This document shows positions 12,537 to 35,054 of a stretch of DNA of 40,367 nucleotides, piece by piece (the stretch's first letter is position 1; each line of letters begins with the position of its first letter). Made by a program: the position numbers and the translations under genes. This DNA comes from a virus (Duplodnaviria > Heunggongvirae > Uroviricota > Caudoviricetes). The notes under the pieces were generated by a model that was given only the letters and a program-made list of their open reading frames with translations, was not told the DNA's origin and searched no databases. The stretch lies in the IMG/VR virus record IMGVR_UViG_2728369591_000003; one strand, written 5' to 3'.

Positions 12537-12851
12537 GTATTTTTAAGTGGCGAATGCTATCTTTTCGCATCATATTGACCTTTTAATCGTTCAGGCTTAT
12601 AGTTCCCGCCGTCGTAGCAAATTCTGCGACCAGGTTTGACAGCCTGAATGATTGTGCGGACAACCGCAGATTTCCGATATTGCGGTATTTTTGTGTCCGT
12701 AAAACCGCGTTACGCCCAAATTATGGTGGGGCGTGATGGGGAGGCTTCGGCCTGCTGGTTTCACAATCGCCAGTCTGTCAACCCTGTCACGTCCTGCCAC
12801 CTGTTTGACAGCGGGTAGCAGGTTGTTAAACCTGATTGTGAGGCCGTAACT

Positions 12852-16242: not shown

Positions 16243-16365
16243 TACAATCGTTGCGGGTGCTTGAGGCTATCTGCTTCAGGCATTACCCGAAAAGCAGATA
16301 GAAGAAAGCCCCAGATAACATTACGCGTCCTGCAAGACGCTTAACATTAATCTGAGGCAATATCT

Positions 16366-16572
16366 ATGCTTAGCATACGTAGATTAGCCTCTTACCGACC
16401 AAAAGGTCAAGGAGAAGCAGGCTATGAAGCAGCAAAAAGCGATGTTAATCGCTCTGATCGTCATCTGTTTAACCGTCATTGTGACGGCACTGGTAACGAG
16501 GAAAGACCTCTGCGAGGTACGAATCCGAACCGGCCAGACGGAGGTCACTGTCTTCACAGCCTACGAATCTGA
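16366..16572 (+). CDS. mok: Mok-like overlapping reading frame (modulator of hok translation)
   Basis: 68-codon ORF in a different frame, starting 58 nt upstream of hok and overlapping almost all of it, the arrangement seen in hok/mok/sok loci. Confidence 0.35.
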   Translation: MLSIRRLASYRPKGQGEAGYEAAKSDVNRSDRHLFNRHCDGTGNEERPLRGTNPNRPDGGHCLHSLRI

Positions 16573-30411: not shown

Positions 30412-32426
30412 AAGAGCTGTGCTATGGATCTGTTTGCAGTGGAATTGAAGCCGCGAGTATTGCCTGGGAACCGTTGGGTATGCGTCCGGCGTGGTTTGCT
30501 GAAATCGAGCCTTTTCCATCTGCCGTTCTTGCGCACCGCTGGCCCCATGTCGCCAACCTTGGCGACATGACAAAACTTGCCAAAAAAGTCCTGGCTGGGG
30601 AAATCGAATCCCCTGATGTGCTCGTCGGGGGAACACCTTGTCAGGCATTCAGTATCGCTGGATTACGTGGTGGGCTTGATGATGAGCGTGGCGCGCTAAC
30701 TTTAAAGTATGTGGAGCTTGCAAATGCAATTGACGACAAACGGGCTGAGTCATTTCTCAAACCGACAGTTATCGTCTGGGAAAATGTCCCAGGAGTCCTG
30801 TCATCGGCAGATAACGCCTTCGGATGTTTCCTTGCCGGATTGGCTGGAGAAGATGCGCCATTTGAACCAGGTGATCGACCTGAATCAGGAAAAAGTAACG
30901 CGTTCTGGCGGTGGGATGGCAAAACCGGTTGCCATGCTCCAAAGTGGCCGCAGTGTGGTTGTATTTATGGACCGCAGCGAAAGGTGGCCTGGAGAATCCT
31001 TGATGCCCAATACTTCGGAGTGGCACAACGACGCCGACGCGTGTTTGTTGTCGCAAGTGCTCGAACAGACCTCGATCCCGCAACGGTACTTTTTGAGTTC
31101 GAAGGCGTGCGCCGGAATATTGCGCCGAGCAGAGGCGAGGGGAAGGAAACTACCAGATATACTTCAGACATCGCTATCAGATCTTGCGATGATACAAACA
31201 TAGTTGCCATGGCACATGGGCAAGGAGGGGCTGAGATAAAAACCGATAATTCGGCACCAACTTTGACATGTAACCATGAAGCACCAATTGTATTGCTCGG
31301 CGACGGTAGAATGCGCCGTCTTACCCCTGTCGAATGTGAAAGGCTGCAAGGTTTTCCTGATGGGCATACGTTGATCCCGACGGAAAAGCGTAAAAAAGTT
31401 AATTCAGATGAACTGGCATATCTTCGCAATCACTATCCAGATTTAAGCGAAGAAGAGGCCGCGATGCTTGCAGCTGACGGACCGCGTTACAAAGCGATCG
31501 GCAATAGTATGGCAATACCAGTAATGTGCTGGATTGGCGATCGGATTACTAAGGCCGTATGTCGGCAGAAAGAAGGAAGTGAAACAAAAGAGCGAAAAGT
31601 TAAACCAGCGGCAGAATTCGAACGGTCCATATTCAAATGGGCTGGTGGAAAATTTGGTGTTCTGGAACAAATCTTTCGCTATTTGCCAGAAGGGAAGCGC
31701 CTGATCGAACCTTTTGTCGGTGGCGGAGCTGTCTTCACGAATGCCGGATACCAGGAAAATCTGCTAAATGATGTGAATGCTGACCTGATTAACTTTTACA
31801 AGACTCTGCAACGCGAGGCGCATTCACTTATCACACTGGCGCATCGTTTCTTCCAGGACTACAACACACAGGAAGGATACCTGGCAGTACGGAATGCGTT
31901 TAACAAACAAGTCTATGATGATTTACATCGCGCAGCGGCGTTTTTGTTCCTGAACCGACATTGTTTTAACGGATTGACGCGTTACAACCAGGCCGGTGAG
32001 TTCAATGTCGGTTACGGGAAGTATAAAACTCCGTATTTCCCATTACAGGAGATGGAAGCCTTCCTCGGTGCGGAAGGGCGGTCTGAGTTTGTATGCGGTG
32101 ATTTTGCAGCGGTGATTGAAGCTGCCGGAGAAGGAGATGTCATCTTTTGCGATCCGCCGTATGAACCGCTTCCAAATACAGAGGGATTCACGAACTATTC
32201 CGGTCATGACTTTAAGTTTGAAGAGCAAAAACGCCTGGTGTCTCTGTTGACGGATGCTCATCGTCGAGGTGCAAAGGTTCTCATTACTAACAGTGGCGCG
32301 CCAAACATCAGAGAGCTTTATCATGACAGTGGCTTCAGAGTGGAACCTCTTTTTGCCAGACGTTCTGTGTCTTGTAAGGGGGACACTCGAGGTGTAGCTC
32401 ATGACGTTTTGGGTATATTGCTCTAA
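30408..32426 (+). CDS. dmt: Bifunctional DNA methyltransferase (672 aa): N-terminal C5-cytosine MTase fused to C-terminal Dam-like N6-adenine MTase
   Basis: GTG start overlapping the hrdC stop, after GGAGAGG. N-terminal half has C5-MTase motifs ([10 protein letters not shown]; [12 protein letters not shown]; ENVPGV). C-terminal half has Dam-type motifs (FKWAGGK; [10 protein letters not shown]; DPPY). Same fusion architecture as P1 Dmt. Confidence 0.9.
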
Positions 32427-32443
32427 TAAATTTATTAGTGTAA
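32417..32443. promoter_or_regulatory. Perfect C1 operator 17-mer overlapping the dmt stop codon, with an inverted partner half-site
   Basis: ATTGCTCTAATAAATTT at 32417-32433 is an exact consensus match and encodes the last residues and stop of Dmt. The overlapping CACTAATAAATTT on the opposite strand (to 32443) forms a second, imperfect site in inverted orientation. Confidence 0.55.
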
Positions 32444-32607
32444 TATCGCCTCAATGAATCGTGATTTATAGAGCGATTTAGCTGTTAGCCGCGACAGGCG
32501 CGGCGGTAAGCATGGCTGGGCCTAGTCCTCCCAGACAAACCACCGAGTTGCCAGGTTGACCATGCGCCTAAGTGGCAACGCCGAAGTGCGTTACGAGCTT
32601 CCAGTTT

Positions 32608-32634
32608 GCCCATCTTCGGGTGGGCGTTTTTTTC
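32608..32634 (+). terminator. Rho-independent terminator
   Basis: GCCCATC ttcg GGTGGGC followed by GTTTTTTTC. Confidence 0.6.
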
Positions 32635-33098
32635 AGGGTTTTCGTCATGGTTAGCGACTTTGCGGCGGTTTAGAAACTGACCATTAAAGTAAATGCAAAC
32701 GATGATCTGATGATGGTAGCGGCCTAAGAAGCCAGATGCCACGGGGTATGAGTCGTCCCCCGTCAAAAAATCGACCGCAGAGTGTCCCCGTCTGTGTATT
32801 AGGGAACGGGGAGGCACAACAGGTAAGGGCGCTGGTGTGATTAACCAGATGAACGAGAAGGGGCCATCTGTTGGTCAGCGTCCTTTCCTGTTGCGTTTTC
32901 TTTTCAGCGTAACAGCGGTGCTTAACAGCACTTTGGGTACAGTTCCACGAATTTACGGGTATATCCCGTCATGCTGAAGGCGCTAATCACGCTGGAAGCC
33001 AGGGTTGTGCATCCCCTGTTACCGAATTGCAGCCAGGGCGCGGTGCGCCGAAAAGCATACGGAGGTGGAAGCCCTCGCCGGAGACGTACCCGGCAAGT

Positions 33099-33174
33099 GA
33101 TGGTGTAGCTCAGTTGGTAGAGCGCCTGCCTTGTAAGCAGGATGTCAGCGGTTCGAGTCCGTTAATCGGCACCA
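33099..33174 (+). tRNA. tRNA-Thr(UGU)-like gene with an imperfect acceptor stem (possibly degenerate)
   Basis: 76 nt ending in encoded CCA. D arm (GCTC AGTTGGTA GAGC), anticodon arm (CCTGC CTTGTAA GCAGG, anticodon UGU) and T arm (AGCGG TTCGAGT CCGTT) are canonical. The 5' acceptor strand GATGGTG pairs with the 3' strand AATCGGC at only 5 of 7 positions (two G-U pairs, two mismatches). Confidence 0.45.
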
Positions 33175-33402
33175 GCACAACAGGTAAGGGTATTTTGCGA
33201 CGTCGGAGATCGCCGAGCTTGGCAGAGGGTTCGAATCCCTACGAAGTACCCTTACCGTTGTGATGAAGTGCAGCTCTTTGAAGCAACCAGAAGATAAGCA
33301 TCTGGCTTCACAACATAAACCGCAGGAACGACCAATAAACGGTAGTCCGTATGGAGAACACCCCGTTGAGGAAGAGGCCTGGCCGGAACCGTAACCGGCA
33401 CT

Positions 33403-33494
33403 ACAACGTTGAGAACACTGGCGTAACGGGGTCATATCCCAATCTACGAATAAATGTTGCGTTGCAGCGTGACAACCAGTGTTCTCAACATTGT
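33403..33494 (+). repeat. Structured repeat element, copy A (long stem enclosing a conserved core)
   Basis: ACAACGTTGAGAACACTGG (33403-33421) pairs with CCAGTGTTCTCAACATTGT (33476-33494) at 18 of 19 positions and encloses the core CGTAACGGGGTCATATCCCAATCTACG. Confidence 0.55.
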
Positions 33495-33684
33495 GGTGAA
33501 TGCACAGGCTGATGTGCCGCAACTACAGTAGTGCGCGCTTTGCGGGGCTTGCTACAACCCTGTGTCGGAGTTCAGCACCGACCATCACAGTTTGATTCTC
33601 TGGCATGAGCATAACGCTGAAATAAGTCCAGCCTGGTGCGGCCCGATCACCCGCCGTTAGCTCCACGAAACGGAGCACGTAACA

Positions 33685-33766
33685 GGTAAGAGCATTCTCC
33701 TGTAACGGGTTCATATCCCAATCTACAGGTCCACCAAGAATGCTCTTTCCGTTGCGGTGAATGCGG
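33685..33766 (+). repeat. Structured repeat element, copy B
   Basis: Stem AAGAGCATTCT / AGAATGCTCTT (33688-33698 with 33737-33747) encloses the core CTGTAACGGGTTCATATCCCAATCTACAGG. The core is conserved with copy A while the stems differ but stay complementary. Shared 3' flank GYGGTGAATGC. Confidence 0.55.
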
Positions 33767-33906
33767 CTAAGCGCACGCGGGGAAATGGTTATATCAGTCC
33801 ATTCATTTCTCCTTGTTTCCCCGTCCACGGTGGATAACCAGCCAAAGGACACCGGGAGGCACCCGGCACCGCAGCTTTTTTATTCGTTAAATAATGGAGT
33901 GAGAGG

Positions 33907-34143
33907 ATGCAGAACAATCCGAACAAATGTCGAACGCTATGGGTGCGGTTATATATTTATGCCGTCCTCTGTTTGATTGTGTCACTGGTTCTGTATGTTT
34001 GGCTTTTGCCAAATATGATCTCATCTAACAGCACAATACTTGTATTGTTGGGAGTCCTTCTCGCGCTCATTTACCCGGCTTTCGCAGTAGTCTTTTTTCG
34101 TGAAAAAACCAGGAAATTAATTAATGAAAAAAACGTTGATTAG
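33907..34143 (+). CDS. upl: Small two-TM membrane protein (78 aa), upl position
   Basis: ATG at 33907 with GGAG RBS. Two hydrophobic helices. Overlaps the start of the downstream SPFH lipoprotein gene. Confidence 0.5.
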   Translation: MQNNPNKCRTLWVRLYIYAVLCLIVSLVLYVWLLPNMISSNSTILVLLGVLLALIYPAFAVVFFREKTRKLINEKNVD

Positions 34144-34951
34144 TGCAGCGATTATTTTGGGTTCTTTATGTCTGACCGGATGCGATCGGGTAGAGCCAGG
34201 TAACGTAGGGATCAAAGTAAATAAGCTGGGGGATGATAAAGGTATCGGTGAAGTAGTTGGCGTTGGTCGCTACTGGACAGGCTTGAATACTGAAGTTTAT
34301 ATCTTCCCGACCTTTAAGCAAATGAAGACATACGATGAGCCGTTCAGCTTCCAGATGAGCGACGGAACAACCATTGGTTACCACATCGGCGTAGCCTACA
34401 AGGTTGATCCAGCAAAAGTCACAACGGTATTTCAGACCTATCGCAAAGGTGTAGATGATATTACTGATACCGATCTACGCCAGAAGGTTGCAGATGCTCT
34501 GAACCGGTTAGCCAGCAAAATGACCACCGACAAATTTATCGACGGTGGCAAATCTGAATTGCTTGATGCAGCCCTTAAAGACATTCAGGAAGAAATGACG
34601 CCAATCGGCATTCAGGTGATGAGCCTCTCTTATGTAGGTAAGCCAGAATACCCGCCAACAGTTATTGACAGTATTAACGCCAAAGTCACGGCAAACCAAA
34701 AAACCCTGCAACGCGAGCAAGAGGTCAAACAACGTGAAGCAGAGGCCAACATGCTGCGCGCGGAAGCTGCCGGACAGGCTGATGCTATTCGCACAAAAGC
34801 CCAGGCCGAAGCTGATGCCATTCGTTTACGTGGTGAAGCTCTGCGCCAGAACCCCGGTGTTATGGAGTTGGAAGCGATCAACAAATGGAACGGTACATTA
34901 CCGCAGTATATGACCAGTAATACCGCTGTTCCGTTTGTTCCGGTGAAATAA
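34124..34951 (+). CDS. plp: SPFH/band-7 (prohibitin-like) lipoprotein (275 aa)
   Basis: ATG at 34124 with AGGAAA RBS. Lipobox LTGC. Then an SPFH-like core and a C-terminal Ala/Glu/Arg/Gln-rich coiled coil (QREQEVKQREAEANMLRAEAAGQADAIRTKAQAEADAIRLRGEALRQ). Confidence 0.7.
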   Translation: MKKTLISAAIILGSLCLTGCDRVEPGNVGIKVNKLGDDKGIGEVVGVGRYWTGLNTEVYIFPTFKQMKTYDEPFSFQMSDGTTIGYHIGVAYKVDPAKVTTVFQTYRKGVDDITDTDLRQKVADALNRLASKMTTDKFIDGGKSELLDAALKDIQEEMTPIGIQVMSLSYVGKPEYPPTVIDSINAKVTANQKTLQREQEVKQREAEANMLRAEAAGQADAIRTKAQAEADAIRLRGEALRQNPGVMELEAINKWNGTLPQYMTSNTAVPFVPVK

Positions 34952-34978: not shown

Positions 34979-35054
34979 GGCCCTTTAGCTCAGTGGTTAG
35001 AGCTGGCGACTCATAATCGCACGGTCACCGGTTCAAGTCCGGTAGGGGCCACCA
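34979..35054 (+). tRNA. tRNA-Ile2 (anticodon CAU, lysidine type)
   Basis: 76 nt. Acceptor GGCCCTT/AGGGGCC, D arm GCTC AGTGGTTA GAGC, anticodon loop CTCATAA, T arm ACCGG TTCAAGT CCGGT, CCA encoded. Close to E. coli ileX rather than initiator or elongator tRNA-Met. Confidence 0.85.

Follow-up and report, generated by a model that had tools for sequence, protein, structure and literature searches.

A probable Asn/Thr hybrid tRNA pseudogene formed by a single deletion in a P1-like phage-plasmid

The tRNA-Thr-like gene found in the 40,367 nt stretch of viral DNA analysed here (referred to as the window) is very probably an Asn/Thr hybrid tRNA gene that arose by a single 78-bp deletion between two neighbouring tRNA genes, trnA and trnT, and whose product is most likely dead. 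The window shares 99% identity with P1 and P1-like phage-plasmids and is itself a P1-like phage-plasmid. In P1 (NC_005856), on whose GenBank annotation our statements about P1 tRNAs rest, trnA (tRNA-Asn, anticodon GUU, 69348-69423) and trnT (tRNA-Thr, anticodon UGU, 69426-69501) lie in tandem with a gap of 2 nt, a spacing also found in all relatives examined. At the corresponding site, the window has one gene composed of trnA[1-7], TAGCTCAG and trnT[16-76] (Table 1). It thus has the form of a hybrid tRNA gene, with its 5' part from the upstream gene, its 3' part from the downstream gene, a common sequence at the junction and the intervening DNA gone.

Table 1. Features of the hybrid tRNA gene and of its surroundings in the window
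Feature	Position	Strand	Evidence
C1 operator palindrome with the ban operon promoters P1ban/P2ban; lies upstream of the tRNA site	32415..32446	+	Inverted repeat; P1/P7 annotations
Intrinsic terminator-like hairpin and T-run closing the dicF-like region	32607..32633	+	Sequence; P1 annotation
Hybrid tRNA gene: trnA 1-7, common 8-15, trnT 16-76 with encoded CCA	33099..33174	+	Rfam; string test; alignment
5' acceptor strand GATGGTG, trnA-derived, mismatched to the trnT 3' strand	33099..33105	+	trnA and trnT starts in relatives
TAGCTCAG, 8-bp microhomology at tRNA positions 8-15 of both parents; deletion join	33106..33113	+	In-register run
Anticodon TGT (Thr, reads ACA), intact from trnT	33132..33134	+	
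plp-like ORF (125 aa); 3' end overlaps the trnT-derived part, outside the deletion	33145..33522	-	P1 plp, 69472-69849
trnT 3' acceptor strand AATCGGC, discriminator A73 and CCA	33164..33174	+	Fold predictions
trnI, third P1 tRNA gene, CAT anticodon, ileX-like tRNA-Ile2, intact	34979..35054	+	ARAGORN; Rfam, 64.7 bits; P1 annotation

Derivation of the gene from trnA and trnT

The gene reads GATGGTG TA GCTC AGTTGGTA GAGC G CCTGC CTTGTAA GCAGG ATGTC AGCGG TTCGAGT CCGTT AATCGGC A CCA, with the CCA encoded at 33172-33174. The Rfam model RF00005 covers 33099-33171 at 54.8 bits (E=3e-9; gathering score 29), P1 trnT and P1 trnA scoring 72.9 and 74.5 bits, respectively, and the model flags two non-standard pairs in the window gene, both of them in the acceptor helix. 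The D, anticodon and T arms are fully paired, the variable loop is intact, and the conserved tRNA nucleotides that were checked (U8, A14, G18G19, GTTCRA and the 7-nt anticodon loop) are all present; the perfect arms and the Rfam score confirm the three textbook tRNA-Thr(UGU) arms of the original prediction. The two mismatches and two G-U pairs that it had described in the acceptor helix were likewise recovered exactly when the helix was read pair by pair (G1-C72, A2xG71, U3.G70, G4-C69, G5.U68, U6-A67 and G7xA66), so that three Watson-Crick pairs are left of a seven-pair stem; G5.U68 is native to P1 trnT. ARAGORN made no call over the gene at default settings or with -ps, rejected it even at -ps90, and with -ps80 returned only junk, namely a 'Leu' of 67 nt within the gene and a 'Tyr' of 95 nt across the downstream hairpin. 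The single tRNA that it reported from the whole window was trnI.

The origin of this arrangement is apparent from alignment with P1, RCS47 and Ro157c2, in which a clean gap opens after GATGGTG and closes at the TAGCTCAG of trnT, so that the window reads ...CCGGCAAGT-GATGGTG and then passes straight into TAGCTCAGTTGGTAGAGCGCC... of trnT. A string test returned the chimera as identical both to trnA[1-7]+trnT[8-76] and to trnA[1-15]+trnT[16-76], as TAGCTCAG stands at positions 8-15 of both genes, where it forms the longest in-register exact run between them (22/30 of their first 30 nt are identical). Against the closest backbone found, pIPCEC31_2 (NZ_AP026785), the window differs over 13.4 kb by 113 SNPs, one 1-nt indel and one 78-nt gap. 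The 78 nt that are absent run from TAGCTCAGCGG... to ...CCAATGCCGGTT or, spelled to their end, TAGCTCAGCGG...CCACCATCGCCA-AT-GCCGGTT, and amount to exactly one gene-plus-spacer repeat period. With them went trnA from the D arm onward (position 8/16), the 2-nt spacer and the 5' acceptor strand belonging to trnT. The deletion joined the two copies of TAGCTCAG, probably by replication slippage or by short-homology recombination.

Apart from its first 7 nt, the gene is that of P1, a resemblance well beyond coincidence. Positions 8-76 are 100% identical to P1 trnT (69/76 overall), the flanks are 98.6-99.5% identical, and the position between the ban promoters/dicF-like region and plp is conserved, all of which is as expected of a trnT orthologue; the 5' strand proper to such an orthologue (GCCGRTT) and an intact trnA upstream of it are both missing, having been lost in the 78-bp deletion. 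With P1 trnT the chimera therefore shares positions 8-76, the flanks, the site downstream of the ban promoters and the overlap with the 3' end of plp, and it departs from it in beginning with GATGGTG rather than GCCGGTT, in its lower Rfam score, in escaping detection by ARAGORN and in its predicted fold, which is a cloverleaf in P1 trnT. With P1 trnA it shares the first 15 nt (GATGGTGTAGCTCAG) and the whole upstream flank, whereas everything from position 16 onward, including the GUU anticodon and G73, is missing. GATGGTG is the invariant start of trnA in five relatives (P1, P7, D6, Ro157c2 and Escherichia albertii pESA138_1), in which gene it pairs perfectly with CACCATC, and trnT starts with GCCGGTT, GCCGATT or GCTGGTT in eight relatives. 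Comparison with the tRNA-Thr genes of related phages thus shows the window gene to be chimeric, and because a trnA 5' strand has been placed on a trnT body, the two acceptor strands no longer match.

The weak acceptor stem is the result of one deletion event and not of gradual decay, which is excluded as positions 8-76 contain no substitution relative to P1. Of the readings offered by the original prediction, that of a decaying pseudogene comes closest: the pseudogene stands, but the decay does not, a gene identical to P1 trnT at 69 of 76 positions having been altered by one 78-bp deletion. A second proposal, that the 5' boundary had been mis-set, is refuted, since 33099 is the true 5' end of trnA and the proper partner of the 3' strand, GCCGGTT, lay within the lost 78 bp. 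When 150 nt upstream were scanned for an alternative 5' strand for AATCGGC, the best 7-mer matched at 5/7 positions and all candidates lay at least 15 nt away, so a better boundary is not available there. We also rejected, on grounds of parsimony, the view that the form in the window is ancestral and the tandem pair derived, because the diverged P7, D6, Ro157c2 and Cyrano all have intact Asn and Thr genes. ARAGORN found intact Asn and Thr genes in P1, RCS47, Ro157c2, pESA138_1, P7 and D6, and an intact Thr gene in Cyrano, KpF5 and ST974-OXA48phi18.2.

A precedent for such a gene comes from the T4 deletion mutants of McClain & Foss (Cell 1984;38:225), in which a deletion within the tRNA cluster reportedly joins the 5' and 3' parts of two tRNA genes at a short common sequence, the hybrid genes having, it is said, been obtained in the laboratory. 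Judged by this analogy, the chimera is of a kind already described in T4 and would represent nothing categorically new. It differs from the T4 hybrids in occurring in a natural P1-like sequence, in being joined at the D-stem/8-15 box and in exchanging only the 7-nt acceptor strand. It neatly illustrates, in a natural sequence, that neighbouring tRNA genes can recombine through the 8-15 box (TAGCTCAG), which is universally conserved. It also calls for a correction of annotation, as covariance-model tools call a tRNA-Thr at this site and ARAGORN calls nothing, whereas what is there is a fused Asn/Thr remnant.

Predicted folding, charging and residual function

The consequences of the strand exchange were examined by thermodynamic folding, a method that leaves out tertiary contacts, modifications and protein partners. 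For P1 trnT, the minimum free energy (MFE) structure is the cloverleaf (-26.1 kcal/mol), in which the acceptor pairs reach probabilities of 0.72-1.0. For the chimera, the MFE and centroid structures are at -24.1 kcal/mol and the cloverleaf, restricted to allowed pairs, is at -16.6 kcal/mol, i.e. 7.5 kcal/mol above the MFE, with predicted probabilities of 0.0 at all seven canonical acceptor pairs. In the predicted MFE structure the three arms are kept and U3-G7 (+U8) pair with C72-A76 (+G71), this alternative register having probabilities of 0.66-0.999, and the same helix of nt 3-8 with 71-76 is predicted when 40-nt flanks are added. Because GAUGGUG is complementary to CACCA (C72-A73-CCA of trnT), the predicted pairing would hide the CCA end; the NCCA end, encoded as ACCA, is predicted to be paired with nt 3-7 at p=0.66-0.999. 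Realignment to a fully paired acceptor stem, which would have refuted the original prediction, did not succeed: the sole continuous helix obtained is that of nt 3-8 with 71-76. As an acceptor stem this helix was rejected, since the CCA end is taken up in it and five nt beside the T stem stay unpaired, which is not tRNA geometry.

When the chimera was aligned with eight trnT homologues, the cloverleaf was 96.4% paired overall, and the trnT relatives showed compensatory changes at 3-70 (CG/UA) and 5-68 (GC/AU/GU). Within this alignment, pair 7-66 is broken in the window sequence alone, and pair 2-71 in it and in one other sequence. The annotated tRNA-Thr of the Klebsiella phage KpF5 has an acceptor mismatch of its own, C2xU71 (GCTGGTT / AACCATC), and the tRNA-Thr of its close relative ST974-OXA48phi18.2 has C2-G71.

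The identity of bacterial tRNA-Thr is determined by G1-C72, C2-G71, G4-C69, G5-C68, G35 and U36, and that of bacterial tRNA-Asn by G73 and the GUU anticodon (PMC9976931 Table 1). The chimera, with its UGU anticodon, has both Thr anticodon determinants, G35 and U36. Its acceptor determinants are incomplete, G1-C72 and G4-C69 being kept, C2-G71 having become A2xG71 and 5-68 being a G.U pair as in P1 trnT. Neither Asn determinant is present, A73 and UGU standing in place of G73 and GUU. RNase P and 3' exonucleases measure the coaxial acceptor/T helix, and defective tRNAs are polyadenylated and degraded. For this reason we expect the chimera to be poor in processing, charging and stability: its transcript would be a poor substrate for RNase P and for 3'-end processing, ThrRS would be deprived both of the determinant C2-G71 and of a free CCA for charging, and the RNA would probably be turned over rapidly. 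As the acceptor helix is broken and C2-G71 is lost, the chimera is, despite its orthology with trnT, probably to be filed as a hybrid tRNA pseudogene rather than as a tRNA-Thr. As read on the 40-kb window, the phage is probably without a tRNA-Asn and, in effect, without a tRNA-Thr, which may carry a fitness cost.

It is possible to argue that the chimera is still a working, albeit weak, tRNA-Thr(UGU), the cloverleaf being forced upon it by D/T-loop contacts and by RNase P, ThrRS and EF-Tu so that some supply for ACA codons continues. Some tRNAs do tolerate acceptor mismatches, and here the D, anticodon and T arms, the variable loop, A73 and CCA are intact, the Rfam score is well above gathering and four of the Thr determinants (G1-C72, G4-C69, G35 and U36) are kept. 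Such a supply would also be useful, as ACA accounts for 25% of Thr codons in the ORFs of the window. However, just 3/7 acceptor pairs are Watson-Crick, a misfold that sequesters the CCA is favoured by 7.5 kcal/mol with canonical acceptor probabilities at zero, the determinant at 2-71 is now an A.G mismatch, the relatives preserve the acceptor helix by compensatory change, and ARAGORN rejects the gene even when set to -ps90. We therefore regard residual function of this kind as improbable and prefer to see in the chimera a dead hybrid. In the long ORFs of the window, the 25% share of ACA corresponds to 16.2 per 1000 codons, and ATA is found at 10.1 per 1000. Usage of both codons is well above that of E. 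coli and fits the classical codon-supplement role of phage tRNAs.

Occurrence of the junction and the question of a selected role

The region is present in 747 E. coli RefSeq records and in 731 PLSDB plasmids (overlapping sets). A 40-mer spanning the junction, built so that neither parental half fills the 28-nt word of megablast, failed to match any of 5,426 complete E. coli genomes or anything in PLSDB. The exact 30-nt junction was absent from GTDB representative genomes, JGI metagenome contigs and IMG/VR, as was a tolerant pattern that combined the Asn 5' strand with the Thr D arm and the UGU anticodon arm and left stem positions as wildcards, and the chimeric junction was not found in INPHARED phages. 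As a positive control, the intact trnA-trnT junction was recovered from at least 80 IMG/VR contigs. With a 261-bp query, all matches among those listed fell into two pieces and most spanned 339 bp, the length of the intact tandem pair; in RefSeq E. coli records, such 339-bp matches are annotated as tRNA-Asn and tRNA-Thr. The good BLAST matches to the window were all split into at least two pieces and covered about 78 bp or more extra on the record side. Across related genomes, then, the chimeric form has no other occurrence in six collections and the intact form is found in hundreds. A singleton chimera on a naturally diverged backbone argues for a lesion that would be recent, unselected and specific to its lineage.

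The same observations bear on whether the deletion exists in a living phage at all, or whether a normal trnA-trnT pair has been altered by cloning, PCR, sequencing or assembly, or by deliberate editing. The junction is in no other record of any collection searched, the source record of the window was itself absent from them, and the surrounding 13.4 kb show otherwise ordinary natural divergence of about 1%, all of which would be in line with such an origin. Against this, an 8-bp repeat is far too short for assembly collapse, bounds that coincide exactly with a microhomology are what is expected of biological slippage or recombination, and the chimera is encoded by the sequence as given in either case. 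An artefactual origin is thus unlikely, and a natural deletion remains our preferred explanation.

The original prediction had further suggested a non-aminoacylated tRNA-like molecule that serves as a decoy for anticodon nucleases or as a processing signal. On such a reading the chimera would be under selection, either to lure tRNA-targeting defence nucleases or to direct the processing of the ban-operon transcript. Those arms that nucleases such as PARIS AriB contact (D and anticodon) are intact in the chimera. Nothing indicates selection, however: the chimeric form is not conserved, for none of the records found in PLSDB and E. coli RefSeq (more than 700 in each, with overlap between the two) has it, and the intact pair is kept by at least 80 IMG/VR contigs. 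Its singleton status speaks against a maintained decoy or processing element. Moreover, the same arms are available from intact trnT, which also decodes, and G39 takes the place of the U39 needed by AriB in its UAAUC|A site, so recognition may fail. The suggestion is therefore without support and we consider it very improbable. That induction yields a transcript of the chimera which survives uncharged in the shape of a tRNA-Thr, and acts as a sponge instead of decoding, seems to us hardly credible.

The hybrid pseudogene may nevertheless be of use in considering what the intact pair does. Phages are known to employ tRNAs of their own as spares against tRNA-cleaving defences, retrons and anticodon nucleases among them. 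PARIS AriB cleaves tRNA-Lys and also the Asn GUU and Thr UGU isoacceptors, T5 variants of tRNA-Lys/Thr/Asn neutralise PARIS, and cleavage by AriB is abolished by U39>A and impaired by A41>C and U16>C (bioRxiv 10.1101/2025.02.04.636281). P1 trnT has G39 and P1 trnA has C16, and by analogy with the spare tRNAs of T5 the P1 trnA/trnT pair might be nuclease-resistant spares. The isoacceptors affected by the deletion (Asn and Thr), which are those of P1 trnA and trnT, are exactly the two that AriB cleaves besides tRNA-Lys, and this coincidence may lend the finding a modest wider interest. In contrast to T5, P1 is without a tRNA-Lys, and the chimera would represent a loss of such capacity rather than an instance of it. 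We found no experiment in the literature that links the P1 tRNAs to PARIS; if they are counter-defence spares, the variant in the window would be a natural loss-of-function allele with which that role could be tested.

Neighbourhood of the tRNA site

The tRNA site lies downstream of the C1-controlled ban promoters, from which it is separated by a dicF-like region (approximately 32541-32642, +) that ends in a strong intrinsic terminator-like hairpin and T-run. Because of this putative terminator, expression of the tRNA would need read-through or another promoter. Rfam made no DicF call in the dicF-like region. Around the tRNA site there are four very stable hairpin modules on the + strand (32812-32900, 33173-33262, 33395-33502 and 33675-33765), with predicted energies of -36 to -49 kcal/mol and z-scores of -4.7 to -6.1. 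Three of the four contain the closing-stem motif AACAGGTAAG(G/A)G and two the inner motif GTAACGGGKTCATATCCCAATCTAC, the module at 33173-33262 holds a T-arm-like AGGGTTCGAATCCCT, and the tRNA segment is flanked by two perfect copies of a 16-nt direct repeat, GCACAACAGGTAAGGG, found at 32814 and 33175. Three of the modules overlap the predicted plp/upl ORFs of the opposite strand, and that at 32812-32900 lies upstream of these ORFs. No Rfam family reached gathering on the hairpin modules, and matches in the neighbourhood to YrlA, tmRNA-like, miRNA and STnc100 models were all below gathering; the sub-threshold match to STnc100, a gammaproteobacterial sRNA, lies downstream of the hairpins at 33753-33873 (+) (37.8 bits against 47, E 3e-6).

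Further downstream, at 34124-34951 (+), an ORF of 275 aa occupies the place that tciA/tciB/tciC have in reference P1; in pIPCEC31_2 the same ORF bears the annotation SPFH-domain protein, and in RCS47 that of a 'putative serine protease'. The trnI gene was labelled 'tRNA-Met (CAT)' by ARAGORN, and is annotated in P1 as trnI, which reads AUA after lysidine modification. The tRNA array at the trnA-trnT site varies among relatives, being Asn-Thr in P1, P7 and D6, Asn-Tyr-Thr in Ro157c2 and E. albertii pESA138_1, and Asn-Thr-Ser in Cyrano, and P7 has a tRNA-Ser approximately 450 nt downstream of its Asn-Thr array. This variation suggests cassette-like gain and loss, to which recombination at the 8-15 box may contribute. 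In the GenBank record of D6 (MF356679), tRNA-Asn and tRNA-Thr are placed on the strand opposite to that given by ARAGORN, which is probably a strand error in the record. Elsewhere in the window, at 12597-12804 and 16255-16429 (+), lie two further RNA features consistent with a P1-type phage-plasmid, namely the C4 antisense RNA of the P1 immI region together with its a1/b1 target, and a sok-like antitoxin RNA scoring 114 bits.
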